A DNA stretch of 64,000 nt from a virus. How positions within the stretch are numbered: the stretch's first letter is position 1; each line of letters starts with the position of its first letter. Location: the IMG/VR virus record IMGVR_UViG_3300037419_000317. One strand, given 5' to 3'. The translations under genes were made by a program, and so were the position numbers. The notes beneath the pieces were generated by a model. It did no database searches and had not been told where the DNA came from. It worked only from the letters and a program-made list of their open reading frames with translations. Shown here piece after piece: positions 3,244-61,487 of this stretch.

Positions 3244-3878
3244 TGACCAACAAAGAACAACTCCAAAAGAAAATCTCCAACCTTGATGTTGAGATTACTC
3301 CTTTACAGGAACAGAAACAAGCTATCACTAGCCAAATGGACAAGCTTTTTAAGAAACGTAAAAAACTTGTGGAACAACTATCTAAACTTGAACTTGAAGA
3401 ACTGCCTGCCAATCCTGAAGATTATTCGTCAGAGCATTGGAAATACATCCTGCATGAAACTGAAGGGATGGACCGTTACTACTTCTGCCAGAGCGTTGTT
3501 GAAAAATATGGGCTGAGGTTCAGTGGATATCAGCCTACCACCAATCAGAAATGTCTACAGCTTTGCTTTGTGCGAGACGACAAGGAAGTGTATAATAATC
3601 ATCTGAAGCTTCTAAAGATGATTTTGCCGAGTATTATTCCTTGTGATATTGAATGTGAGGATGGTAGCGTCAAAGGCAAGTATCTTGGCATTCTTGATAG
3701 CGGCCTGTCAGAATATGCAGTCTATTTCGCTATTGTCAACGAGGAGCAAGGTATTTATTGGGCAATGCAGACCCGATATTGCAGTGTCACTTGCAATGGC
3801 AAATTCGATAGTTTGGAGAAGTTGATGGAATATCTGAATACCAATCACTACTACTACCGCACAAAAAAGGATGATTGA
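3243..3878 (+). CDS. hypothetical protein with N-terminal coiled coil (211 aa)
   Basis: TAATG stop/start overlap. The first ~50 aa are heptad-like (LQEQKQAITSQMDKLFKKRKKLVEQLSKLELEE). Confidence 0.65.
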   Translation: MTNKEQLQKKISNLDVEITPLQEQKQAITSQMDKLFKKRKKLVEQLSKLELEELPANPEDYSSEHWKYILHETEGMDRYYFCQSVVEKYGLRFSGYQPTTNQKCLQLCFVRDDKEVYNNHLKLLKMILPSIIPCDIECEDGSVKGKYLGILDSGLSEYAVYFAIVNEEQGIYWAMQTRYCSVTCNGKFDSLEKLMEYLNTNHYYYRTKKDD

Positions 3879-3926
3879 AATGACCAAATCAAAACTACTC
3901 AATTCAATTTCTGAGGACTTGCCTCG

Positions 3927-4115
3927 ATGAAAACTATACAAGAAATCTTATCCTTTCGACCGCAAACAGCTCCTGTTGAGCACGGCCAAGAGCCTGCTAT
4001 ATACGAAATGGTATACTCCTACTACCGCAGCAGTGGAATGTCGTTTGAAGAAGCTGAAAAGAGCACAAGAGATTATGTGAAAGCCCTTGTTAGATATAGT
4101 GAGAGTGTTGATTAG
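3927..4115 (+). CDS. hypothetical protein (62 aa)
   Basis: GAGGA SD upstream. Tight packing. Confidence 0.55.
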   Translation: MKTIQEILSFRPQTAPVEHGQEPAIYEMVYSYYRSSGMSFEEAEKSTRDYVKALVRYSESVD

Positions 4116-4367
4116 ATGAATCTACTACATAAACCCCTCCTGCGAACATTCTTCGTTGTGTGTTTGCTATGTACATCCCCTTTGTGGGCTTCTTTGTTGT
4201 CAGACCCATACGGAGGCATCTTGACAGCATTACAATTTGCTGTAGGGGTGTATTTATTCTTCTGGGCATTTGATAAAAATGAAGGTGTGTGGAATGCCGT
4301 GTTGCTTTACGGTCTGTTCTTTGGTATCTTCTTTGTTCTGCTGCTGATTGCTTACCCACATCACTAA
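4116..4367 (+). CDS. small membrane protein (83 aa)
   Basis: Starts right after the upstream stop. Hydrophobic helices FFVVCLLCTSPLWASLL, VGVYLFFWAF and LLYGLFFGIFFVLLLIAY. Confidence 0.6.
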   Translation: MNLLHKPLLRTFFVVCLLCTSPLWASLLSDPYGGILTALQFAVGVYLFFWAFDKNEGVWNAVLLYGLFFGIFFVLLLIAYPHH

Positions 4368-4377
4368 GGAGAAAGAA

Positions 4378-4533
4378 ATGCAATACAAAGGACGAAAACT
4401 CAACCCTCCGCACATCATCCTGATTCGTTGCCTGCTCTACCCTCTGCTAAAGTTGCTGGGCTTGATGATGGCTGGCGTACTGGTGGTCGGGTGGGGATGG
4501 GACGAAGGGAAAGACTTTTGGGAGGGGTTGTGA
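4378..4533 (+). CDS. small membrane protein (51 aa)
   Basis: AAGGAG SD. Hydrophobic helix LLGLMMAGVLVVGWGW. Confidence 0.5.
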   Translation: MQYKGRKLNPPHIILIRCLLYPLLKLLGLMMAGVLVVGWGWDEGKDFWEGL

Positions 4534-4706
4534 AACACTCAGAAATCAAAGTAGGTATGCGCGTATTTGATCTTCTTCCCAGCCTTGGATATGGTGAAGT
4601 GGTAAAAGTCAACAAGAAAACCGTGTGGGTGTTATTTTATAAGTACTACAATACCGAACCTGTGATCTACGACATTCCGCACTTGCAGTTTTTGGAGAAG
4701 GCATAA
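4530..4706 (+). CDS. hypothetical protein (58 aa)
   Basis: GTG 4530 in a GTGA overlap with the upstream stop, after a GGGAGGGG SD. Same frame as track ORF 4428-4706. Confidence 0.45.
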   Translation: MKHSEIKVGMRVFDLLPSLGYGEVVKVNKKTVWVLFYKYYNTEPVIYDIPHLQFLEKA

Positions 4707-5002
4707 TGCCCGGTAAATCTGTAAGCTTTCAGAGGCTTGTACAAAGTAAATTTAGTTTGAAATTCCAGAACGAAATCCACAAGCAATCTAGAACCTGTTC
4801 TGGAAACCTCCTACCCCATGTGGTCAACGAGGGGGCTTTTCCATTTCCTGTCTAGTTTAAACTTTGTGGGGTCTTGAAAGGCGTTCTGAAAATATAGGGT
4901 AGAACTCCTGAAATCGCTGTGTGAGTGTGCTGCTACACTACTACACCTAGAATGCTATCAGGCTTATCGACTTGATAGTATTTACAAAAAGTATAGGCGA
5001 GC

Positions 5003-16858: not shown

Positions 16859-17197
16859 ATGTCCGGAACCATCGTTAAGAAAGCCTGCAAGTGCTACAAG
16901 TGTAAGGCAGAATTAAAGGTTGGTGACGCTGCAATCTGGCATAAGAAAGTAATCGGAAGCAACACCACTTTTGCGAACTCCAGCCGTTTTGTTCGTTGGG
17001 AGATGCAATGCGCTGACGAGAAAGCATGTGGGATGCGCGCAGGGAATGCTTACTTGGCAAAGGTTGCCGCAGAAGATCAAAAGAAAGCTCAAGAAATTGT
17101 TGATATAATGCGTAGTGGCGCCATTGGTGTGATTCCGCAGAGCGCAATCGAACAAGTGATTGCTAAGTATGCAAGCGAAGGAATTGTTGTAGAATAG
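16859..17197 (+). CDS. hypothetical protein with N-terminal CxCxxC (112 aa)
   Basis: GAGG SD. KKACKCYKCKAELKVGD at the N-terminus. Last gene of the rightward arm. Confidence 0.6.
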   Translation: MSGTIVKKACKCYKCKAELKVGDAAIWHKKVIGSNTTFANSSRFVRWEMQCADEKACGMRAGNAYLAKVAAEDQKKAQEIVDIMRSGAIGVIPQSAIEQVIAKYASEGIVVE

Positions 17198-17218
17198 GCA
17201 GCACAGATTCACATTACA

Positions 17219-17246
17219 GGCCCGCCTTAGCGGGCTTTGTCGTTTC
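17219..17246 (+). terminator. rho-independent terminator
   Basis: GCCCGC-CTTA-GCGGGC followed by TTTGTCGTTTC. Confidence 0.75.
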
Positions 17247-17551
17247 TGGACAGGACATTGTGTTGTAGAAGATGACTGTACAACTTTTTGTGTAGAAACC
17301 TGTTGACTTCTGTTTAGGTGTGCAGATTTGCGCCAGCAGCTACAACAAGGGCACCAGCAATCAGTCGATTTGTCACTTTTCGGAGATGATTCCGCGTAGC
17401 GCCTTCGAAGCTATGACCGCTAATCTCAACCTCAAGCACTCGCACGATGTCAATATGAGCATGGCTGAGGCGATGTCTCAGAAGTAACGACAGAGAGCTT
17501 TACAGCACCATTAGAGAGCGCCTTTCGGGGCGACTAATTAGCAAGCTAATT

Positions 17552-17577
17552 CCCGGCCTAGAGCCGGGTTTTTCTTT
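17552..17577 (+). terminator. rho-independent terminator
   Basis: CCCGGC-CTAGA-GCCGGG followed by TTTTTCTTT. Ends a short unit that begins near the TTGACT at 17303. Confidence 0.75.
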
Positions 17578-18315
17578 ACCTGTAGGGCTCTTATAAGCAT
17601 CTTTACAGGGTTGACAGGCTGACAAACAATTGTTTAGGAGTGCTAACAAATGTCTATGTGGGATATTGGATAGTGTTTTCGGTCTAACCAAATTGGTTTG
17701 TGTTCGGTAATCGCACAACCCCTGTCATCAACGAAGGGTGTTTCTTTAAGGCAATCATCGGTGTAACTGATAGGTTACATTGACAGAAGCCCGGCAGGGT
17801 AGGCGCGAGGAGTGCTAATTAGATAACCATCGAAATAAGCTAGAACAGCGAACAGGCGCTTTCCAGCAGCAGGACGGCAGCTAGAGAGGGACTAGGCCAA
17901 TGGGACGGCAAGGGATGGCAGCAGAGGGCTTAGAACACGCCAGCTAGGGCGCTGAGAGGGCGTTACAGGGGCTTTTGAGGGGCGCTGGTGGGGATTGGAC
18001 AGGGGAAGTGCTGGCAGGCGTGCGCAGAGAGTGGGCGCGGGAGGGTACGATGTCGGGCCGTTTTCAAGGATGGCTAACGAACGTTTGGCCTTTGGAGTAG
18101 ATATTTTGCCAGTCTGGAGGGGGCTTTTCGGGCGGCTGGGCGGCCCATTAAGCAACGAAACCGCCTCACGGAAGAACGAGGAACCTCCTCAGTAACAATC
18201 TCCCAAATAACCTGCCAAAAATTTAAACAGAACCCCTTGATATATTTTCAACAAATATTTCTATGATACAAGAAAACATTGACAGATAAATTTTAAAATT
18301 TTCTCGAAATTTCAC

Positions 18316-18344
18316 TTGTCAAAGCTTGCTCCAAAGGCTATACT
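18316..18344 (+). promoter_or_regulatory. sigma70-like promoter of the recombinase gene
   Basis: TTGTCA-N17-TATACT. Confidence 0.55.
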
Positions 18345-18381
18345 CCTGCTCATCTGTTCAATATTCAAGCAGGAGGAAGAC

Positions 18382-19059
18382 ATGAAGAAAACCCTAGTAG
18401 GATACTGCCGAGTGTCTACTGAACGACAACAGTCGGCTCGGAACGGTTTGGAAGCGCAGCGTGCAGAAATCGAGGCATTCGCCAAAACAAATGGATATGA
18501 GATTGTGGAAATTGTCGAAGAGGCTGTGAGCGGTAAGTGCGATCTGGACTATCGCCCTGTGCTCAAAAGCTGCATTCAGAAATGCTTGAAGATGAAGGCA
18601 ACTTTGGTTGTTTCTAAGCTAGACCGCCTATCGAGGCGTGCTTCGTTCATTATGAACTTGATGGAAACGAAGCTAAAGTTTGTTGTGGCAGAGCTTGGGG
18701 AAGATGTGTCGCCTCTTATGCTGCACATTCATTGCGTTATTGGTGAACATGAGAGGAAGGCTATTGGCTCTCGTACAAAGGCGGCGCTCCAAGCAAAAAA
18801 GCGCCGTGAACCTGAGTGGCAACCGGGTAATCCTACTAACCTACCGGACGCGGGTAAAAAGGGGGCACTAGCAACAGCTAAGATGGCAGATATGTTTGCA
18901 GAGCGTATGCGCCCTAGTGTGACACGTATGATTAAAGCGGGGATGACATTCTACTCTATTGCAAAAGAACTTAATGAACAAGAGACCCGGACGCCTCGGG
19001 GTGGGAAGTGGACTGTTCAATCGGTGTCGAACCTGACTCGTCGTTTTGCAGCTTCTTGA
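18382..19059 (+). CDS. small serine recombinase (resolvase/invertase type, 225 aa)
   Basis: AGGAGG SD. GYCRVSTERQ catalytic-Ser motif, VVSKLDRLSRR, and a C-terminal HTH-like IAKELNEQETRTPRGGKW. Confidence 0.85.
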   Translation: MKKTLVGYCRVSTERQQSARNGLEAQRAEIEAFAKTNGYEIVEIVEEAVSGKCDLDYRPVLKSCIQKCLKMKATLVVSKLDRLSRRASFIMNLMETKLKFVVAELGEDVSPLMLHIHCVIGEHERKAIGSRTKAALQAKKRREPEWQPGNPTNLPDAGKKGALATAKMADMFAERMRPSVTRMIKAGMTFYSIAKELNEQETRTPRGGKWTVQSVSNLTRRFAAS

Positions 19060-19486
19060 CCCTCTTAAATATGTGGCAAACTGTACTTGTGTACCATCTA
19101 CCTCCCCGTTGTGTTTTTACACCTGTGGTATTTAGATAATCCGCAATGGCTTGCAAACCCATTCCAGACTCTTTAAGTGGTGAGACTATTTCATATATTT
19201 GTATGGCGAAATTGTCGGCAGTTTCAATAATAGCCTGCCTACTTAAAGCTTGGGCCTCTGAGAGATTTGTTCGATTTCCTAGAGCTACACCACGCTCTCT
19301 AGCACGCTGAATCCCTGCCTTGGTAAGCTCTATGTGGTCGTCTCTTCGTTTATTGTACCCGCCATGAACTAATGCATGGCAGCCGCCGCACAACGGAACA
19401 GTCTTTGTCCCACCTAAACTCTCCGGTATTACATGATGTTCCTCCGTTGCAGGTTTACCACACTCAAAGCATTCTTTATTCTTCAT
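18971..19486 (-). CDS. HNH nuclease fused to a serine-recombinase-like C-terminal (E-helix/DNA-binding) module (171 aa)
   Basis: N-terminal CFECGKPATEEHHVIPESLGGTKTVPLCGGCHALVH. The rest aligns by eye with residues ~135-220 of the neighbouring recombinase. ATG 19486 follows AGGAAAAT. 89-nt 3' overlap with 18382-19059. Confidence 0.65.
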   Translation of the reverse strand: MKNKECFECGKPATEEHHVIPESLGGTKTVPLCGGCHALVHGGYNKRRDDHIELTKAGIQRARERGVALGNRTNLSEAQALSRQAIIETADNFAIQIYEIVSPLKESGMGLQAIADYLNTTGVKTQRGGRWYTSTVCHIFKRVKKLQNDESGSTPIEQSTSHPEASGSLVH

Positions 19487-19499
19487 ATTTTCCTGTCTA

Positions 19500-19527
19500 C
19501 ACAAAACAAAAGGCCGCTTGCGCGGCC
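19500..19527 (-). terminator. rho-independent terminator (minus strand)
   Basis: On the minus strand: GGCCGC-GCAA-GCGGCC followed by TTTTGTTTTGT. Confidence 0.7.
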
Positions 19528-19556
19528 CTCCAACCAACCAAAATTTTCAGCTACCT

Positions 19557-19793
19557 TTACAGCGCCCTCACCTTAGCTAGAGCATCCTCTAGAATAGCAA
19601 CAGCCTGTACCTTAGTCTCCTGCTTTACCTCCGCAGCAACCCCATCTCCAGCATTGCCACGCGCTACACCTTTAAGCTCCTTAGCGCACCACGCATAGCT
19701 ACAACCAAGCGTAGTGGCAATCTCAGCATAGCCCATGCCCCCTTGACGGAGGCTTACTGCCAGTTCTTTATCAATCTTACGAATATTTGCCAT
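19557..19793 (-). CDS. stand-alone HTH protein (78 aa)
   Basis: AAAGGAAAT SD. RQGGMGYAEIATTLGCSYAWCAKEL resembles a resolvase/Hin-type HTH. Has its own promoter and terminator. Confidence 0.6.
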   Translation of the reverse strand: MANIRKIDKELAVSLRQGGMGYAEIATTLGCSYAWCAKELKGVARGNAGDGVAAEVKQETKVQAVAILEDALAKVRAL

Positions 19794-19821
19794 ATTTCCT
19801 TTCTATAGCTCTAACAGTGCT

Positions 19822-19850
19822 ATTGTATCATATGGACTGTTATTTGTCAA
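19822..19850 (-). promoter_or_regulatory. sigma70-like promoter (minus)
   Basis: Minus strand reads TTGACA-N17-TACAAT. Confidence 0.7.
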
Positions 19851-19875
19851 GTTTGTTTCAACCTAAACCCGCCAC

Positions 19876-20070
19876 TCACAGCTTCCACACTCCAGTGATG
19901 CGGACATTCCTAGTTTCACAGTAGCAGGAATCAGCTACAGAACTAATCACATCCTCAATGAAGCTCTTTGCATCATGAGTATCCTCTACATAAGTAAATG
20001 CCTGAGTGCCCCACCTAGCACGGTGTCCATCAACACAAACTTCCCAACCAATAATGTATTCATGTTTCAT
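19876..20070 (-). CDS. hypothetical protein (64 aa)
   Basis: GAGGAG SD. ORF track. Confidence 0.6.
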   Translation of the reverse strand: MKHEYIIGWEVCVDGHRARWGTQAFTYVEDTHDAKSFIEDVISSVADSCYCETRNVRITGVWKL

Positions 20071-27196: not shown

Positions 27197-27937
27197 ATGT
27201 TTTGTAAAAATGAAGATTTGTCTGGTCAGAAATTTGGCAGGTGGTTAGTTGTAAATTTAGCACAAGCAGGTAGTAAGCGGAAGTGGAACTGCGTTTGTGA
27301 TTGTGGGACATCGCGCGGCGTTTTAGCACAAGCCCTTAAGCGTGGTACATCTACCAGTTGTGGATGTTTTCAAAAAGAAAAATTAGCAGAGCGGAGCATT
27401 ACGCACGGACTTACTAAATTCCCCGGTTATAGCAACTTCTTAGAAATGCATGATAGGTGTTATAACGCAGAGAGCCAAGCGTATAAATACTACGGTGCTG
27501 TTGGAGTGTATGTAGAAAAAGATATTTGGGAGTTTGACGATTTCATTAAGGCAATCGGACCAAAACCTTCTGATGAGCATAGTATTGGAAGAATTGACAA
27601 CTCTCTTCCATATAGAGCAGATAATATAAGGTGGGAGACGAAGGCTCAGCAAGCACGTAACCGCTGGATGATTTCAAGTAATAAATCGGGTGTAACTGGA
27701 GTGCACTTATCAGAAGATGTTGTAGACGGTGTAACCTACCAAAGATGGATCGGTAAATATACAAACCTAGACGGTAAACAAAAGAAAAAGAGTTTTAGTG
27801 TAAAGAAGTTCGGGTTTGAAGCTGCAAAGACTTTGGCAACGGAGTTCAGGGAAAACGGGATAAAATCACTACAAGCATTGGGTGCAGATTACGGGGAGAA
27901 GCACGGATTACCTAGGGAGTTAGAAAAGAATGAGTAA
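27197..27937 (+). CDS. HNH-family (IDR-type) endonuclease with AP2-like DNA-binding domain
   Basis: AGGAGAAAG SD. GRIDNSLPYRADNIRWETKAQQARN nuclease motif. C-terminal GVTGVHL...YQRWIGKY...FGFEAAKTLA is AP2-like. Overlaps the TerL start. Confidence 0.65.
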   Translation: MFCKNEDLSGQKFGRWLVVNLAQAGSKRKWNCVCDCGTSRGVLAQALKRGTSTSCGCFQKEKLAERSITHGLTKFPGYSNFLEMHDRCYNAESQAYKYYGAVGVYVEKDIWEFDDFIKAIGPKPSDEHSIGRIDNSLPYRADNIRWETKAQQARNRWMISSNKSGVTGVHLSEDVVDGVTYQRWIGKYTNLDGKQKKKSFSVKKFGFEAAKTLATEFRENGIKSLQALGADYGEKHGLPRELEKNE

Positions 27938-29363
27938 GAAAGAAAAGCCGGTCCTTGGGCCGGATTCTTTGACGCACAAACGCTTCTTAGATTGTACAAG
28001 TGACTACGTAATCTTTGGCGGAGGAGCCGGGTGTGGCAAGAGCCATCAGGCACTTTTGAAAGTCCTAAAATACAAAGACGACCCCAATTTTCGTGGGGTG
28101 TTTATCCGAGAAACGTCTACGCAGCTATCTCAAGCTGGTGGCCTCTACCAAGAGGCTGAAAAGATGTGGAAGCAATTCGGTGCGAAATTCAAGACGCACC
28201 CTCAAATGACTGCAACTTTTCCGTCAGGCGCGCAAGTGCAATTCAAAGTGTGCGGAGCTGATAGGGACATCTCCAACTACGATGGTGGTCAGTTCTCCCT
28301 TGTGGTATTTGACGAAGCTCAGAACCACACGGATGTGCAAATCCGCTATCTAGAATCCCGTATTCGTTCTCAGGCCAAAGGGCCGCACCAGTTAGTGTGC
28401 ACTTGCAATCCGCGCAGGGATAGTCACCTAATGCCTTTCGTGAATTGGTATCTTGACCAAGACACAGGTATTCCTATTCCAGAGCGCTCTGGTGTTGAGC
28501 GTTACTACGCTTCCTATAACGGAACGATGGTATTTGCGGATACACGAGAAGAACTGCTGGAACAATATGAAGGCGTAAGGCCACAAAGCTACACCTTTAT
28601 CAGCGCCACTATTCGGGACAACCCTCGAATGAAAATCCTAAATCCCGGCTATGTGGCTCGTCTTGAGAATCTTAAGCGAGTTGAACGGGAACGTCTGCTG
28701 CTGGGAAGCTGGTTTGCTAAAGAATCCACTTCAGGTTATTTCAAGCGGGATTGGTGCGAGATTGTAGATAAATGTCCTGCTCTGGTTACTACTCGTGCTC
28801 GGGGGATGGACTTAGCCAGCACTCTTAAATCCGAAAGCAATCCTGATCCAGACTGGACAGCATCTACTAGACTTTCTAAAGGAAAAGATGGATTCTACTA
28901 TGTAGAGCACGTCGAGAGGTATAGAAAGCTAACAAACAGTGTTTTAGAGCAGATTGTAGACACTTCAAGACTTGACTTAGGCGAACTAGGAAGGCAAGTT
29001 CCTGTGTTTATTCCGAAAGACCCCGGAGCAGCAGGAGCCGCAGCTAATATGTTCTTCATCAAGACGCTTGTGGAGAATGGAGTGGATGCCCGTACAGAGA
29101 TGGTGTCAGGCCATTCTGGCAAGCTTTCTAGGATGCAGCCTTTCCTGTCTCTGGCAGAAGCCGGTCTAGTTAAGGTGGTGAAGGGAGATTGGAACGAGAT
29201 GTGGTTCAACGAGCTTGAGGACTACATCGATGGGAACAGGAACCAAAAGGACGACATGTGGGATAGCACTGCTACAGCAGCTAAAGCTGTTATGAAGCAA
29301 ATAACAATCCCATCATTTAGCCTTCCTGTAAATACTCAAGCTTCTCCTATCCCCTCCCTATAA
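27930..29363 (+). CDS. terL: terminase large subunit
   Basis: 477 aa. Walker A FGGGAGCGKSH, Walker B LVVFDEAQ. Precedes the portal. Confidence 0.85.
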   Translation: MSKKEKPVLGPDSLTHKRFLDCTSDYVIFGGGAGCGKSHQALLKVLKYKDDPNFRGVFIRETSTQLSQAGGLYQEAEKMWKQFGAKFKTHPQMTATFPSGAQVQFKVCGADRDISNYDGGQFSLVVFDEAQNHTDVQIRYLESRIRSQAKGPHQLVCTCNPRRDSHLMPFVNWYLDQDTGIPIPERSGVERYYASYNGTMVFADTREELLEQYEGVRPQSYTFISATIRDNPRMKILNPGYVARLENLKRVERERLLLGSWFAKESTSGYFKRDWCEIVDKCPALVTTRARGMDLASTLKSESNPDPDWTASTRLSKGKDGFYYVEHVERYRKLTNSVLEQIVDTSRLDLGELGRQVPVFIPKDPGAAGAAANMFFIKTLVENGVDARTEMVSGHSGKLSRMQPFLSLAEAGLVKVVKGDWNEMWFNELEDYIDGNRNQKDDMWDSTATAAKAVMKQITIPSFSLPVNTQASPIPSL

Positions 29364-30105: not shown

Positions 30106-31590
30106 ATGGCAGCTAAAAAGAAGCCAAAAGATGATTCGGCTGCTTTAGCGGCTGATGATGGTGTTGCAGTGCCACGTATTTCCCTCGGAGAATCAGGTTT
30201 CGTGGGATTGCGCACCGTGTGGGGCCGAGTAATTGACGATCCCCAGCGAGCCTTCCATACACCTCAATTTCTCCGCACAGTAAGAGAAATGATGAATGAT
30301 GCGGTTATTGCATCTGCCATCAACACCTACCGAATGCTACTCTCCCGCGTTTCTTGGAATGTTGTGCCTCCAATGGACGCCACCGATGAAGAAAAAGCCC
30401 GAGCCAAGTTTATCGAATCCTGCAAGGACGATATGGAGCACTCGTGGGCCAGCTTCATTTCCGATGTTATTACATATCTTCCCTATGGCTTTGCTGTAGA
30501 GGAAAAAGTTTATCGTCGCCGTCTTACAAAGAATGGTAGCAAGTTTAATGACGGACTTGTTGGAATTCGTAAGATTGCACCACGTGCTCAAGAGACGATT
30601 GCTCGTTGGACATTCTCTGAGGATGGCCGTGAGCTTTTAGGCTGCGAGCAGTCTATCCAAAATCTTGAACACGGTGGGATGTTTATTACCGGCCTTAATG
30701 AGCACGGTCTTATTCCCATCAAGCGCGAAAAGTTTATGTTGTTTACAGCAGATGGCACGAAGGGTGATCCTACAGGTAACTCTGTGCTCAAGGGAGTGTA
30801 TAAGGCGTGGAAGCAGCTAGATATGCTGCGCGATCAAGAATTGCTTGGAATTGCCAAGGAATCAAATGGTCTTCCGCTTATTCGCCTGCCGCCCGATTAC
30901 ATGGCTGTTGATGCACCGCCCGACAAACAAGCTGTCTATCAAACCTGCCAGAAACTTCTGGATACAATCCAAGCCGGTACAAATCGCGGTATCGTATTCC
31001 CGAGGTTGATTGACGAAACTTCTAAACAAGATTTGTTCGATATCTCTTTGCTTGAGAAAAAAGGTATCCCCGGCTCTAACCTTGACACTGCCATCAAGCG
31101 ATATGCTGATGAAGTGTACTCGGCGCTTGGCGTAGATATTCTTAAAAACGGTGGTGACTTAGGTTCTTTTTCCTTGTCGGATTCTGACACAAACCTTGTC
31201 TCCCTTGCAATGGCTCACCGTTTGAATGAGATTGCAGATGTTCTGAATAATGATCTTGTGGTGCAGTTGCACAAATTGAATGGCTGGAGTACAGAACGAC
31301 TGCCGCGATTTGTGCCGGGAGATATCTCCGAGATGAGCGCAGACGAACTAGGCAAACTTGTTCAACGCACAGCATCTGTAGGTCTTGCAGTAAAAGACCT
31401 TGCCACTATCAATCGTATCCGCAGGGCAGAAGGCATCGAAGAAATTCCTCCTGAAACTGATGTGAATTCTCTTGAATTTACTATGGAGTCTAGTAACGCC
31501 GGGGAAGGAATGCAAACAGCCGGGGAAGGGACGGCCAAAAAACCGGGGTCCAAGGACTCTAGTTCGCAGAATTCGGAGAATGCAGCTTGA
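30106..31590 (+). CDS. portal protein
   Basis: 494 aa. AAGGAG SD. Lies between TerL and the prohead protease. Size typical of portals. Confidence 0.75.
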   Translation: MAAKKKPKDDSAALAADDGVAVPRISLGESGFVGLRTVWGRVIDDPQRAFHTPQFLRTVREMMNDAVIASAINTYRMLLSRVSWNVVPPMDATDEEKARAKFIESCKDDMEHSWASFISDVITYLPYGFAVEEKVYRRRLTKNGSKFNDGLVGIRKIAPRAQETIARWTFSEDGRELLGCEQSIQNLEHGGMFITGLNEHGLIPIKREKFMLFTADGTKGDPTGNSVLKGVYKAWKQLDMLRDQELLGIAKESNGLPLIRLPPDYMAVDAPPDKQAVYQTCQKLLDTIQAGTNRGIVFPRLIDETSKQDLFDISLLEKKGIPGSNLDTAIKRYADEVYSALGVDILKNGGDLGSFSLSDSDTNLVSLAMAHRLNEIADVLNNDLVVQLHKLNGWSTERLPRFVPGDISEMSADELGKLVQRTASVGLAVKDLATINRIRRAEGIEEIPPETDVNSLEFTMESSNAGEGMQTAGEGTAKKPGSKDSSSQNSENAA

Positions 31591-34145: not shown

Positions 34146-35198
34146 ATGAGCATGACTATTCGTGACTATTTCAATAGTTTCAAGAATGCCGATTTCGTTG
34201 ATGGAATCACTCAAACCCCGCTGCAATATGGCTACATCAACAGCCAAAACCTGTTCAATGTCAAATCGACCAATCAAACAGCTATCGTTTTTGACAAAGA
34301 CTACAACACCACCACTCTGCTGCCGCAAGTGAATCGTGGTGCTCACGCTTCCACGCAAAACCACGAGCGTAAAGCTGACACGTTTGCGCTGAAGCTGGCT
34401 TACTTCAAGCACGCCGACCGCCTGACCAACGAGGACATCCAAAGCTGGCGCGTTCCGGGTTCGACCGATGAAGAAACCTATGGTCGCGCTACTGCGGAAA
34501 AGATGGGCGATATGAGGCTCGCATGGGACCAAAATCAGGAATATATGAAGCTGCAAGCTCTAAAAGGGGTGTTTAAAACTCCGGATGGGACTGTGATGGC
34601 TGATATGTACTCGGAATTTGGTATCACTCAGACCACCATTGACTTCCTGCTGGGAACCACGACCACTAACGTTGACTCGATCATCCGTCAACTGAAGACC
34701 ACGATTTCTAAGAACGTAATGAACGGTGGCGCAATCTCGGGCGTCTCGGTGCTGGTTGATCCGCTGTTCTACGATAAACTGATTTCGCATCCGAACGTCA
34801 AGAATGCCTACCAGTTCTATATGGCGCAAGGTAACGGAAACGCTGTTCTGCGGGACGACAATACCTCGTATATGAAGTGGGGCATCATGGATGCATTTAC
34901 CCTGCGTGGTATTAAGTTTGTTTCGTATGATGCGACCTTCAACCTGCCGGGTGGCACCACTGAAAATGCATTCGCTGATAACAGCGGTATTGCATATGCA
35001 GAAGGCGTGAAAGACCTGTTCCGTGGCTACAACGGCCCTTCGGCTAAACTGTCGGAAGCTAACCAGCCCGGACAAGAGCTGTTTGTACGGTCGTATATTG
35101 ACAGCCGGGATGAGTTCGTTGAATTCGAGATGGAAGCATCTCCGCTGTACTTTACCACTCGTCCGGCATCGATCGTTAAGATTGTGTCGAGCAACTAA
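34146..35198 (+). CDS. major capsid protein (lambda gpE-like)
   Basis: 350 aa. AAAGGAA SD. Strong codon bias (CTG, CGT, NCG). Hairpins downstream. Confidence 0.75.
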   Translation: MSMTIRDYFNSFKNADFVDGITQTPLQYGYINSQNLFNVKSTNQTAIVFDKDYNTTTLLPQVNRGAHASTQNHERKADTFALKLAYFKHADRLTNEDIQSWRVPGSTDEETYGRATAEKMGDMRLAWDQNQEYMKLQALKGVFKTPDGTVMADMYSEFGITQTTIDFLLGTTTTNVDSIIRQLKTTISKNVMNGGAISGVSVLVDPLFYDKLISHPNVKNAYQFYMAQGNGNAVLRDDNTSYMKWGIMDAFTLRGIKFVSYDATFNLPGGTTENAFADNSGIAYAEGVKDLFRGYNGPSAKLSEANQPGQELFVRSYIDSRDEFVEFEMEASPLYFTTRPASIVKIVSSN

Positions 35199-56129: not shown

Positions 56130-57875
56130 TCATTGGCACGAAACACATTCACTGCTGCTACTCACAACACCACGGCTGCTGTAGACATAATACAGGCTGA
56201 GAATGTCTTCATTCTCGAAAGCTTCTTGGTGAATCTCCGAGATAAGCTTCTCATCTGCATCTCCAGCAAAGAACAGGTTGGTGCTCTGTCCTTGGTCAAT
56301 GTACTTCTGTCGCGCAGCAGCAAGCCGCACAATGTCTCGCTGGTTGATTTCAAAAGCGGTTTTGAAAACCCGCTTTTCTTCGTCTGTCAGCCAATCTACA
56401 TGCTGCACGCTACCTTGACTACGAACAGTATCCTTGATACAAGCTTCTACGTCAAGACCCTTATCTTTAATAACCTTAAGAAGTGTTGGATTTACGCGGT
56501 CCACCTCTCCTGCTGCTGTAAGCTGGGTAAAACTCATAGCAACGTCAGGATTGATACCTTCACTGATGCCTCCATAGATCAGCGCAGTGCTCTTCGTGGG
56601 AGCCACGGCCATCCTATGAGTAAATCGTACACCGTAACCCTTGCACCACTCAGGCTCTCCAAGTTCTTGTGAGAGCCACTTGGATGCTTGTTGGGACTGC
56701 TCATCAATCTGCTTGAATACCTTCAGATTGAACATATGGGCGTCCACACCCCCAAACTCCATCATGTGCTCTTGTAGATAAGTGTGGAAGCCGCCTGCAC
56801 CAAGACCAATTGCTCGGCCCTTAACAGTGGAAGCTACAGCCTTCTCCATCCCTTTAATCTTGCTTGCCTGTTCGATGAACTCCGACACAACACAGTCAAG
56901 GAAGACAGTGGCAACAAATACAGCATCCGTATCTTTCCATTCGTCGTACTTGGCAAGATTCATCCAAGAGAGAACACAGGTATACGTGTATTCAACACTA
57001 GAGTGAAGGAAGATTTCAGAGCAAAGTTGGCTTGCCTTCACCATCAATCCCAAGTCTTTATACATCTCAGGACGATGACGATTCACCTTATCAACGAAGA
57101 AGAAGTAACCCTTCCCGAAGATCATCTTTGCTTTCAGTGCTCGTTGGTAACGTTTAATCGCTTCCTTATTACCTTTCTGAAGTTTGGAAATAAACTTATC
57201 CGTAATAATCCAACCAATATTGAGGTCATCGGGTTGCTCTTCAAGATACTGTACTACCTCCCAAAAGTCGCCGTGCTGAATATCTAGATAACCAGCCCAA
57301 GCACCACGGCGAGAAGTGCCTTGGGCAACGTCGCGCATATCTTGCACAAAATGCTTGATTACAGGCAGGACGCCAGAAGCTTTGCCACCAACACTGATAG
57401 GACTACCACGTTTCCTAATGCCAGATAGATCAGAAGCTGTGCCAAACCCTTGTTTGGTGAGGATGGCGATTTCTCTGTATGCGTCATAAAATCCTTCAAT
57501 ACTGTCATCAACTACACTACCTGCACAACTTACAGGGCATCCTCGATTGGTTCCCATGTTAGCAAGGACAGGTGTGGAGCACGCTACCCAACCATTCCAC
57601 AGCACCCTAAAAAACTTGTTGTACCAGTAGTCATATGCTGTGATGTCCCGGCATTCCAAATCGTAATCTGCATTGTGAGGTGCTACAACTTTTGGAGCAT
57701 GTTTAGCTGCTGTTGCGGCAATTCTACTAAATTGATTCCAAGGGCTCTCTGCTTCATACAGATACTTCTGTTTGAACATCTGATATCCAGACGTGCTCAT
57801 CCAATCTGGGACAGTCCCTGCTGCTTGCCCTGCTTTTCGTTCCGCGCTGAGTTGTTCGTAAAGATTTTCACTCAT
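56130..57875 (-). CDS. nrdA: ribonucleotide reductase class I alpha subunit, no ATP-cone (581 aa)
   Basis: Active-site SQLCSEI. YY...C-terminal ECVSCQ. ATGA coupling to the nrdB stop. Confidence 0.85.
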   Translation of the reverse strand: MSENLYEQLSAERKAGQAAGTVPDWMSTSGYQMFKQKYLYEAESPWNQFSRIAATAAKHAPKVVAPHNADYDLECRDITAYDYWYNKFFRVLWNGWVACSTPVLANMGTNRGCPVSCAGSVVDDSIEGFYDAYREIAILTKQGFGTASDLSGIRKRGSPISVGGKASGVLPVIKHFVQDMRDVAQGTSRRGAWAGYLDIQHGDFWEVVQYLEEQPDDLNIGWIITDKFISKLQKGNKEAIKRYQRALKAKMIFGKGYFFFVDKVNRHRPEMYKDLGLMVKASQLCSEIFLHSSVEYTYTCVLSWMNLAKYDEWKDTDAVFVATVFLDCVVSEFIEQASKIKGMEKAVASTVKGRAIGLGAGGFHTYLQEHMMEFGGVDAHMFNLKVFKQIDEQSQQASKWLSQELGEPEWCKGYGVRFTHRMAVAPTKSTALIYGGISEGINPDVAMSFTQLTAAGEVDRVNPTLLKVIKDKGLDVEACIKDTVRSQGSVQHVDWLTDEEKRVFKTAFEINQRDIVRLAAARQKYIDQGQSTNLFFAGDADEKLISEIHQEAFENEDILSLYYVYSSRGVVSSSSECVSCQ

Positions 57876-58882
57876 TCCATTTCCTTCCCATATGATTCCT
57901 TTGATACCCACTCAAAAGCTTTTTCGTTCCAAGAACGGGTATATTCACGCCCAACACCAGTAAAGAAGTCGATTGCTTGATAACCTTGAACTGCCGTGTA
58001 GAACCATTCCTCGATTGCATGATCCTTTACATCAAAGATTGGCTGCACACCAAGAGAATCCAGACAGACATTTACACGATGCGCCACAAACGCTTTCATC
58101 TGTTCTGCCGTAATGCCTCGCAGTGGACCCTTCTCAAACAGCATATCTACAATACGCTCTTCGTGCTGAAGAATCTTTTCAGCCACCATTTCAATATTGC
58201 CGTAGAGGATATCTAGAGTTTCACCTTTAATCTTCAACTCTTTCAACACCTTTCGGAACAACGCAGCGCCTGCTTGCTGGTGAAGACCCTCGTCAATCAC
58301 ACTCTGGTTAATGCCGCGTACAGTATTGCTAATAAGGTTATTTCCGTTGCTCTGGAAGTTCTTAAACATTGCAAAGCTACTAAACAGAACCGCACCTTCG
58401 ATGATACTAAAAGCAGCTAAGCTCAACAAATCATCTTCGCCGCCAACAATACTGTCGAGGAACTTCACCCGATCATTCAAGACAGGATCATCAACATAGC
58501 TTGTATAAAATTCGTCAGTGTTCAGACCCAGTACTTCGTTAAGTTTATTGTAGAACGGAGCATGTACAGCCAATTCCATCATACCGAATACAGATGCCAT
58601 TCGTTGAATTTCTGGTCGTGGGTAAGTGTTCATAACACGAGTGAGCCAGTATTCAGTACCAACAAAAATCTCATACTTAACAAACAGCTTGAGTGCAGTA
58701 GTGACAGCGTGACGTTCAGCCTCAGTCATGTTAACAAGCATATCTTGCTTGTCCTTCTCCATTGCAATCTCATTACTAGTCCAAAAGCACTTTTCAAGCT
58801 GTGTGTTTGCAAACTCTACAAATTCTGGATAGTGTACAACATAACTATCAGTGAATGTTTTAATTCGTGGTTGTTTAGTCAT
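57872..58882 (-). CDS. nrdB: ribonucleotide reductase class I beta subunit (336 aa)
   Basis: AFSIIEGAVLFSSFAMF and VIDEGLHQQ ferritin-like metal-site motifs. GGAAGGGG SD. Confidence 0.85.
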   Translation of the reverse strand: MTKQPRIKTFTDSYVVHYPEFVEFANTQLEKCFWTSNEIAMEKDKQDMLVNMTEAERHAVTTALKLFVKYEIFVGTEYWLTRVMNTYPRPEIQRMASVFGMMELAVHAPFYNKLNEVLGLNTDEFYTSYVDDPVLNDRVKFLDSIVGGEDDLLSLAAFSIIEGAVLFSSFAMFKNFQSNGNNLISNTVRGINQSVIDEGLHQQAGAALFRKVLKELKIKGETLDILYGNIEMVAEKILQHEERIVDMLFEKGPLRGITAEQMKAFVAHRVNVCLDSLGVQPIFDVKDHAIEEWFYTAVQGYQAIDFFTGVGREYTRSWNEKAFEWVSKESYGKEME

Positions 58883-60536: not shown

Positions 60537-61487
60537 TTATTTACCATGATTAGTAAGACTATTCTGTTTAGTATGGTCTGAGACGTTTTTCCTGCTGCGA
60601 TTCATTTTACCACAATCCATACAGTTGTACAGGGCAAATGCAGAAACAGAAGTGTAGTATTTCTTATCAATCAAAGTAAGTTTATCACTTCCACAGCACA
60701 CACACCGTACTTTACCAGCAGGTTCGTACAATGCAACATTGGGGTGAGTCTTACTCCAATGGCGCAGTCTCATATAAACTTCTTCCAGCACCACTACGTC
60801 CTGTACGTTATACTCAAGCATTTCCTCAAATGCATCATCATCCATAGACATGCAGCGCGTCCATAAATCAAAACCGCTGTGGCTCATCTTGCGAGATAGG
60901 CCGAGGTAGGAAGCAATACTATCAAGGCTGTTGCTAGGAAACCGGAACTCAGCTTTGGCAATGCGCAGTGTGTCAACAATCTTAGAAGGGCTTGGTGGAG
61001 TCATACCAAGAGCCACCATTCGGGTTTTGATAAGAGGAATGTCGAACTTCTGTGCATTGTGAGCTACAACCAAATCAGCCTTGTCCATCAATTCTGCAAG
61101 CTCTCGTACCAACACTTCATCATTACGAGGCTCATAGATTCGATTGGAGACAATGGTTTCTTCACCTAGCCACTTGGCAGAATATGTAAGAAGATAACCT
61201 TCTTGCACAACCTGTTTCTGGCTTACATTCTGATCCCATCTTCCCCAAACATATGCAGTGGTAGGAGCACATTCTACATCTAGTAAGAGAATCTTAGCTC
61301 CCTGCGGCACATGGCCTTCTACGACATCCACTTCTACTTTCTTAAAATTGAAATACTTGCGGAGATAATCACTCACTGTAGACTTAGCTTGGTCAAGTTG
61401 TCGTGCAATTTCTCGCCAAGACATTTCGGGGTACTCGTTAGCAAGCTTTACAGACAACACCTTCCAATCTTCTTGTTGCTCGTTCAT
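60537..61487 (-). CDS. RNaseH-fold 3'-5' exonuclease (PolB-exo-like) with N-terminal HTH and C-terminal zinc ribbon
   Basis: ILLLDVECAP (Exo I-like), VVAHNAQKFDIPLI, HTH SWREIARQLDQAKSTVSDYLRKY, and CVCCGSDK...CMDCGKM. Confidence 0.65.
   Translation of the reverse strand: MNEQQEDWKVLSVKLANEYPEMSWREIARQLDQAKSTVSDYLRKYFNFKKVEVDVVEGHVPQGAKILLLDVECAPTTAYVWGRWDQNVSQKQVVQEGYLLTYSAKWLGEETIVSNRIYEPRNDEVLVRELAELMDKADLVVAHNAQKFDIPLIKTRMVALGMTPPSPSKIVDTLRIAKAEFRFPSNSLDSIASYLGLSRKMSHSGFDLWTRCMSMDDDAFEEMLEYNVQDVVVLEEVYMRLRHWSKTHPNVALYEPAGKVRCVCCGSDKLTLIDKKYYTSVSAFALYNCMDCGKMNRSRKNVSDHTKQNSLTNHGK

Follow-up and report, generated by a model that had tools for sequence, protein, structure and literature searches.

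We analyzed a 64,000-nucleotide stretch of viral DNA (IMG/VR record IMGVR_UViG_3300037419_000317; hereafter the window), which is part of the ~90 kb genome of a tailed phage; neither this phage nor its host has been cultured. The minus-strand gene at positions 18971-19486 of the window on balance probably encodes a free-standing homing-type HNH endonuclease that is targeted by a serine-recombinase-type module and that occupies a landing-pad slot beside a small serine recombinase (SR) gene (18382-19059, plus strand). In the encoded protein an HNH finger is joined to the helix-E end and linker of a serine recombinase and to the first helical helix-turn-helix (HTH) sub-domain of the 'Recombinase' domain. 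We use HNH-RD as a label for this architecture, L-numbers for the relatives' loci or lineages that were compared with the window, and P-numbers for proteins outside it.

The open reading frame at 18971-19486 specifies 171 amino acids and starts with the sequence CFECG...HHVIPESLGGTKTVPLCGGCHALVH. Residues 1-50 (19337-19486, minus strand) constitute an HNH, or His-Me finger, domain with the pattern CxxC...HH...CxxCH...H. As a single sequence this domain scored below the Pfam cut-offs for HNH_5 (E = 2.4e-4; 21.4 versus 27.5 bits) and HNH (E = 0.014; 16 versus 21.4 bits), and the nuclease matched the PHROG HNH endonuclease profile at 2e-6. A profile of 27 aligned family members, which share 28-63% identity with the window nuclease, matched the HNH domains of the solved proteins IscB (2e-8) and McrA (1e-5). 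Eight residues of the finger (C6, C9, H17, H18, C33, C36, H37, and H41) are invariant in all 27 members. AlphaFold2 predicted a beta-beta-alpha fold for the finger, with strands at residues 15-19 and 28-32 and a helix at residues 34-40.

The finger is followed by what remains of the helix-E end and linker of a serine recombinase, 'LTKAGIQRARERGVALGN' (residues 51-74; 19265-19336, minus strand), and by an RD-type helical DNA-binding module consisting of a long helix and an HTH, '...GLQAIADYLNTTGVKTQRGGRWYTSTVCHIFKR' (residues 75-145; 19052-19264, minus strand). The remaining residues 146-171 and the stop codon (18971-19051, minus strand) make up a disordered C-terminal tail that is antisense to the 3' end of the SR gene. 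AlphaFold2 predicted a helix at residues 52-64, corresponding to the helix-E remnant; the predicted local distance difference test score was above 95 for the RD module, about 70 for the tail, which has no predicted secondary structure, and 92.5 for the domain model. Pfam Recombinase (PF07508) matched residues 106-141 at 28.6 bits, above the 21.1-bit cut-off, with partial coverage: the match spans model positions 15-50 of 102, and the protein ends ~30 residues later.

Resemblance between the C-terminal regions of the nuclease and SR had originally been noted by eye, and formal pairwise alignment with BLASTP reproduced it (34% identity over 90 residues, E = 5e-12). When hhalign was used to set the HNH family against an SR alignment, the probability was 99.1% (E = 1.4e-18 over 110 columns), the match beginning in the last turns of helix E. 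The helix-E remnant aligned with SR residues 132-150 and with the SPbeta integrase from residue 148 onwards. Residues 52-141 of the family profile matched residues 148-255 of the SPbeta large serine integrase (9dxh_A) at 1.9e-5. Pfam detected no Resolvase (PF00239) Ser-catalytic domain in the 171-residue protein, which has an HNH finger at its N terminus and is therefore not a recombinase. Pfam, BLASTP, and hhalign thus agree with the architecture put forward in the original prediction, in which an HNH finger stands in place of the Ser-catalytic domain while the helix-E end and recombinase-type module are kept. The three open reading frames of that prediction all lie where it had placed them.

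The SR gene encodes an intact serine recombinase of 225 residues, in which a Resolvase catalytic domain is followed by helix E and then by an RD-type HTH module at the C terminus; it does contain GYCRVSTERQ and VVSKLDRLSRR, the motifs by which it had first been recognized. SR matched Pfam Resolvase at 6e-27, the PHROG integrase/DNA invertase profile at 1e-30, and PF07508 at 7e-6 across residues 181-219. In Pfam terms its C-terminal module is the beginning of the 'Recombinase' domain (PF07508) or HTH_62. Residues R10, S12, D81, R82, R85, and E124 are invariant in the SR alignment. Among the matches listed, SR homologs of 218-240 residues form more than 120 clusters, many of them from contigs of 75-95 kb, and SR belongs to the core genes of a ~90 kb phage group. 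SR-based scans of IMG/VR and of Joint Genome Institute (JGI) metagenomes, which used a pattern-based pre-filter, returned few loci. SR is probably the evolutionary source of the type of module found in the nuclease.

HNH-RD is a real, large, and unnamed family. A word-indexed search retrieved 74 relatives, nearly all of 136-185 residues, with the close relatives falling into ~21 clusters. When 1.84 billion representatives were searched exhaustively with the family profile, at least 283 clusters (50% identity) were recovered at E <= 1e-30, mostly of 135-175 residues and matched by the profile from end to end. Source annotations call these proteins 'hypothetical protein' or 'HNH endonuclease' and give them no other name. 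The suggestion that this is not a described family is upheld: no whole-length model was found in Pfam, PHROGs, NCBIfam, or PADLOC, no member occurs among 50,697 isolated phages, and literature searches aimed at an HNH plus recombinase-arm architecture found no published description of one. About five full-length copies were present in bacterial and archaeal assemblies sampled at one genome per species. In distant members the large-serine-recombinase motif G..PYGY lies directly past the helix-E remnant. P0076 (223 residues) has the arrangement HNH-RD-RD, P0075 (554 residues) contains two HNH fingers and about five RD modules, and in P0081 (683 residues) a Resolvase catalytic domain precedes seven tandem RD-type HTH repeats of ~70 residues. 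These three proteins indicate that the RD-type HTH can be stacked in nucleases and recombinases alike.

The position beside SR is a variable slot. In the window, in L007 and L020, and in L008, it holds a gene for a 78-residue protein (HTH78, see below) and the HNH-RD gene, with SR convergent. In L010, L017, and L018, HNH-RD and SR follow one another in a tandem operon. In L038-40 and L044 the slot contains the same HNH finger joined to an unrelated C terminus. In L115, a sister phage from the same metagenome as the window, an unrelated HNH protein of 351 residues is encoded between HTH78 (67% identity) and SR (70%), and in L112 a canonical HNH_3+NUMOD4 gene lies 43 bp upstream of SR with a GIY-YIG gene nearby. 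The L105 slot holds a second and very divergent SR paralog (4281-4901, minus strand; 206 residues, 24% identical, with the RVS and DRL motifs kept) adjoining the L105 SR gene (3537-4202, minus strand). Five further lineages (L082, L104, L111, L113, and L114) have no nuclease in the slot. Within the phage group, SR is core and HNH-RD is accessory. Conversely, 22 of the 27 distinct HNH-RD lineages in IMG/VR (L012, L013, and L015 among them) have no SR within 4 kb.

Judged by sequence identity, the nuclease and SR have discordant histories. The closest relative of the window nuclease is that of L010 (60%), whereas the window SR is closest to that of L008 (79%) and shares just 43% identity with the L010 SR. 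The flanking deoxynucleoside monophosphate phosphatase is closest to that of L082 (77%), which has no nuclease. Across lineages the HNH finger is 65-93% conserved and its own DNA-binding module 26-62%. Such a fast-diverging module on a conserved finger looks like the pattern of a nuclease with changing specificity.

The orientation of SR relative to the nuclease also flips by lineage, from convergent in some to an operon in others. Active site-specific inversion of the SR gene was considered on this account and rejected. No inverted repeats flank the gene, and the region 17000-20000 is 100% collinear across six independent assemblies of the window phage; the flip is therefore treated as an evolutionary rearrangement.

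The nuclease gene has two comparative attributes of a free-standing homing gene. It is sporadic at one locus among close relatives, other nuclease genes substitute for it there, and identity matrices and flank identities set its history at odds with that of the flanking genes. Free-standing phage homing endonucleases occupy intergenic slots and are known for distant cleavage of related genomes, marker exclusion, and co-conversion of flanks (PMC2988022), and boundaries of genetic exchange between phages are marked by nuclease genes (PMC10448857). We infer that the window protein cleaves DNA with site specificity. The RD module and arm would bind a specific DNA sequence, and the zinc-stabilized His-Me finger would thereby be set on the adjacent backbone, which it would nick or cut. 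In a mixed infection the cut would fall on related phage genomes that lack the nuclease gene or carry a sensitive allele. Recombinational repair would then copy the nuclease gene together with flanking markers, giving rise to the mosaicism observed around the SR cassette. Homing and marker exclusion of this kind are suggested by analogy with the T-even free-standing endonucleases and with nuclease-marked exchange boundaries.

The regulatory signals around the gene point to low expression. A sigma-70-type promoter (19822-19850, minus strand; TTGACA-17-TACAAT, 11/12 matches, extended TG) serves a leftward unit whose first gene encodes HTH78 (19557-19793, minus strand) and which includes the nuclease gene. 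Between the two genes lies a strong intrinsic terminator (19507-19532, minus strand; an 11-pair stem and then a T-run). The terminator ends 20 nt ahead of the nuclease ATG; as the nuclease gene lacks a promoter of its own, its expression would need read-through. Low expression is accordingly to be expected, the more so as the gene faces convergent SR transcription. Tight, low expression is typical of phage homing endonucleases, and a promoterless nuclease gene behind a strong terminator fits this.

HTH78 is a weak-HTH protein. The open reading frame, promoter, and terminator assigned to it in the original prediction are all present, whereas its description as a Hin/resolvase-like HTH is not established: the match to HTH_23 (0.0029) is below the cut-off, hhalign against the RD module gave a probability of 5.6%, and we consider this support too weak. 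Orthologs of HTH78 (47-67% identity) occur in L007, L008, L020, and L115, that is, wherever SR is convergent, and none is found in tandem lineages.

The nuclease and SR genes overlap at their 3' ends by 89 nt (18971-19059), exactly as first described. Overlaps of 71 and 74 nt between SR and HNH-RD are found in L007 and L008, respectively, and in L115 the unrelated 351-residue HNH gene overlaps SR by 140 nt. The nuclease tail encoded in the overlap is missing from the tandem-lineage orthologs, which have 148-155 residues, and its conserved motif 'STSHPE' is the reverse complement of the most conserved motif of SR, 'PRGGKW'. The tail is probably an incidental read-on. Taken with its disorder, these observations indicate that the overlap is a by-product of squeezing a gene onto the 3' end of SR, and not a purpose-built antisense control. 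Nevertheless, convergent transcription may dampen both genes.

Several observations weigh against the homing interpretation. Foldseek searches with the whole protein and with the domain alone gave nothing significant; the best matches were large serine recombinases at E > 1 (for the domain model, Bxb1 was top at E = 1.1, and SPbeta superposed with a root mean square deviation of 0.9 over just 32 residues), so the assignment of the recombinase domain is based on sequence profiles. The finger lacks the canonical Asn of the H-N-H motif, having a four-residue deletion relative to IscB and McrA and a nearly invariant K28 at that place. Catalytic competence is consequently deduced from residue conservation. 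The H-N-H Asn is structural and is absent in several groups of His-Me fingers (PMC5714182), and its loss therefore lowers confidence in nuclease activity without excluding it. In addition, an SR gene is found next to HNH-RD in roughly three or four contexts that are independent of one another (the ~90 kb group, L028/29, L047, and L067). By our rough judgement, made without a computed expectation, this recurrence exceeds the chance placement of a phage gene. In L028 the nuclease module shares 60% identity, across 88 residues, with the module of an SR encoded 270 bp upstream; the two are reciprocal best hits, far ahead of all other members of the family. This hints at a real link between nuclease and SR in at least some elements.

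The L028 case means that capture or conversion of a neighbor's DNA-binding module does occur. If such capture took place in the window, it is old. It is possible, though on the whole not likely, that HNH-RD proteins in general are recombinase-site-directed nucleases, which would have arisen by repeated capture of the recombinase arm of a neighbor or rival and would be aimed at crossover or accessory sites. Positions 3002-5270 of L028 contain, in order, SR, a 103-residue HTH-like open reading frame, the HNH-RD gene, and a ParA-like ATPase gene; this element may be a plasmid or phage-plasmid.

We regard as rather unlikely a functional pair in which HNH-RD and the neighboring SR read the same or an overlapping site and compete with or complement one another, with the gene overlap serving as mutual antisense control. 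In a variant of this explanation the nuclease might cut unrecombined or empty sites, or the two proteins might form a cleavage-versus-recombination switch. A pair would make sense of the homologous C termini, which include the end of helix E, a segment positioned over the center of the crossover site in recombinases, as well as of the recurrent adjacency to SR and the shared L028 module. It is also in keeping with L067, where the genes for SR and HNH share an ATGA overlap within one operon, and with the convergent overlap kept in the window, L007, and L008. However, when the DNA-binding modules of HNH-RD and SR are compared across the ~90 kb phage group, pairs from one genome share 32-43% identity and pairs from different genomes 27-45%; because identity within a genome is not elevated, there is no sign that the two proteins have co-evolved. 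The putative recognition-helix residues of the nuclease differ from those of SR at most positions, the HNH and SR trees disagree, and the conserved tail is accounted for as the antisense of an SR motif. SR is common without HNH-RD, unrelated nucleases in the slot also overlap SR, and the gene orientation, and hence the regulatory logic, flips among lineages. SR is best read as an independent, intact recombinase that neighbors the nuclease and is not its obligate partner. The original prediction had offered two possibilities, a homing or cleavage-versus-recombination pair and mutual competitors, both reading one DNA site. Its homing component fits the comparative data; its same-site component is not supported for the window phage.

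It is unlikely that the nuclease is an anti-competitor weapon in the manner of ICP1 Odn, with the recombinase-type module aiming the finger at att, res, or other sites occupied by the serine recombinase of a rival element (a satellite, prophage, plasmid, or co-infecting phage) and so destroying that element. Odn provides a precedent (PMC8263062; PMC10448857), and the fast-evolving DNA-binding module on a conserved nuclease domain, the occurrence of most family members in phages without an SR nearby, and the existence of multi-module variants would all suit such a role. On the other hand, neither a target element nor a matching recombinase was identified for the window protein, and no PADLOC defense or counter-defense family was matched save for a weak McrA-type HNH, for which reason a defense-system reading was rejected. 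On present data a weapon is also hard to tell from ordinary homing.

A non-catalytic regulator, in which the HNH finger would be a zinc-stabilized structural or DNA-contact element of a repressor or decoy for recombinase-type sites, is very improbable. The Asn-bearing loop is deleted, and an operator could be formed by the GCCTTTGGAG copies (described below), one inside the SR promoter and one upstream of it. Nevertheless, none of the 27 aligned members departs from the general-base His-His pair or from the last metal-binding His, and GCCTTTGGAG is missing both from L115 and from tandem lineages that have HNH-RD. Equally remote is a packaging helper like HK97 gp74, an HNH protein that would assist terminase at cos sites with its RD module near the genome end: phage HNH proteins encoded beside terminase genes often have a packaging role (PMC3592412), and the distant member L013 adjoins a portal and probable terminase block, but the window nuclease gene lies ~8.4 kb from the terminase gene, on the other strand in an early/accessory gene block, and is missing from close relatives with the same structural genes.

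A conserved non-coding stretch (17200-18240) flanks the SR gene, with patches of conservation across lineages. It is 0.7-1.2 kb long and collinear in every lineage of the phage group, has a fixed orientation whichever way SR points, and is G-rich on the plus strand at ~17860-18200. It is possibly an origin, a recombination site, or a regulatory region. A structured RNA at 17.2-18.4 kb was considered and discarded: there was no Rfam hit, the fold z-scores were -0.46 and +1.32, and the most conserved block showed no covariation. That block (17696-17742) is ~83% identical in L007, L018, L038, and L105 and contains a unique 17-bp dyad, TGTTCGGTAATCGCACA, at 17701-17717, which by its sequence looks like the binding site of a dimeric protein. 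A pattern search of IMG/VR with the conserved block yielded the new lineages L104 and L105 and chance matches in L107, L108, and L110. Three TTGAC(A/T)...(T)AGGAGTGCTAA-like units are located at ~17302, 17613, and 17780 (within 17296-17830), and intrinsic terminators at 17218-17237 and 17552-17568 lie among them; these units might be small transcription units in the non-coding region. In L111-L114, which are other ~90 kb phages, the SR homologs (47-54% identity) are followed by genes for an HD_4 phosphohydrolase and an RtcB RNA ligase, which stand where the non-coding stretch would be, and HNH_3 and GIY-YIG genes are clustered within ~2 kb of SR.

The SR gene has its own promoter (18316-18344, plus strand; TTGTCA-17-TATACT, 10/12 matches), which is limited to convergent lineages and kept in L007, L008, and L020. 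The second copy of the candidate operator or binding site GCCTTTGGAG (18329-18338, minus strand) lies between the -35 and -10 elements of this promoter, and the first copy is at 18088-18097 (plus strand). These are the only two exact copies in the 64 kb window; they are inverted and 231 bp apart. The motif is conserved in L007, L008, and L020, with three copies each, and is absent in tandem lineages and in L115. Invertibility of the 231-bp segment between the copies was rejected, as a conserved element inside it has the same orientation in all lineages and no variant assemblies were found.

Other genes of the window include those for the terminase large subunit (27930-29363), portal (30106-31590), major head protein (34146-35198), ribonucleotide reductase (56130-58882, minus strand), and an exonuclease subunit of DNA polymerase (60537-61487), along with two tRNAs. 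The terminase open reading frame covers positions 146-614 alone of the 642-position PHROG profile. An open reading frame of 246 residues (27197-27937) abuts it upstream and could represent either the small subunit or a sign that the N terminus is split or unusual. Identical copies of the locus are present in JGI contigs of 88.9 and 90.0 kb and in several Logan contigs. DNA and protein searches of the 50,697 isolated phage genomes found nothing similar to the window, and matches to serine integrases in these searches involved the RD part of a family member only. Two Logan contigs from different runs, L004 and L006, both end exactly at 18242, and nucleotide homology to L007, L008, and L115 starts at 18239, which suggests that 18239-18242, the left edge of the SR cassette, is an assembly-graph branch or a mosaic boundary.

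A homing-type nuclease of this kind would bring a new type of DNA-binding module, a serine-recombinase arm with an RD HTH, to homing-type nucleases. It would also mean that the break-point at the end of helix E on which designers of recombinases rely is used by nature in the reverse direction. Many phage "hypothetical proteins" become annotatable, namely hundreds of unnamed 50%-identity clusters known from metagenomes only. A nuclease landing pad beside a conserved gene, at which at least four nuclease types alternate, is useful for the study of phage mosaicism by selfish nucleases. If module capture holds, as in L028, HNH-RD proteins could reveal the target sites of recombinases, and compact sequence-specific nickases or nucleases become possible. 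If HNH-RD proteins were indeed directed to recombinase sites, their activity would be to cut instead of recombine, allowing homing by recombinase genes or destruction of competitors' att or res sites, and the RD-type HTH would serve nucleases and recombinases alike as a general unit for reading DNA, one that can be stacked in arrays of up to seven.

Among known systems, the phage free-standing HNH homing endonucleases (I-HmuI-type and Mob-type enzymes with NUMOD or IENR modules, and the T4 seg and mob enzymes) are likewise encoded by small genes, with the nuclease at the N terminus and a modular DNA-binding part at the C terminus. They also share the intergenic slot by a conserved gene, the sporadic and replaceable occupancy, and the local mosaicism (PMC2988022, PMC10448857). 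The HNH-RD module differs in being a helix-E end plus 'Recombinase' sub-domain rather than NUMOD, IENR1, or a zinc-finger. The HNH-RD finger is of a short Cys4 type without the Asn loop, with IscB and McrA as its nearest solved relatives, and homing is in its case inferred.

A second group of related proteins comprises the large serine recombinases (SPbeta SprA/YokA, Bxb1, and LI integrase) and small SRs with an RD-like C terminus in the combination Resolvase plus PF07508/PF20552; HNH-RD aligns with part of the SPbeta integrase and with the C-terminal region of the neighboring SR family. The signature IA..LN..G..T..G..W....V is common to HNH-RD and the serine recombinases. Unlike these, HNH-RD lacks the Ser-catalytic domain, the zinc-ribbon, and the coiled-coil, and retains the first part of the Recombinase domain only.

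The DNA-binding domain of the chimeric nuclease ICP1 Odn was copied from the origin-binding protein of a satellite, and Odn cleaves the origin (PMC8263062). HNH-RD follows the same principle, a nuclease domain combined with the DNA-binding domain of another DNA-transaction protein, by which cleavage would be redirected to the sites of that protein, and the 60% near-copy in L028 is analogous. Nevertheless, the donor is a serine recombinase in HNH-RD and a RepA_N initiator in Odn, and the window module is 34% identical to that of the neighboring SR, which is not above background. The nuclease of Odn is reportedly of the T5orf172/GIY-YIG type, as against HNH in HNH-RD. Finally, engineered zinc-finger and TALE recombinases and recombinase-Cas fusions separate the catalytic from the DNA-binding domain at a break-point at the end of helix E. 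HNH-RD is their natural converse, in that it retains the DNA-binding part and has a nuclease in place of the catalytic domain.

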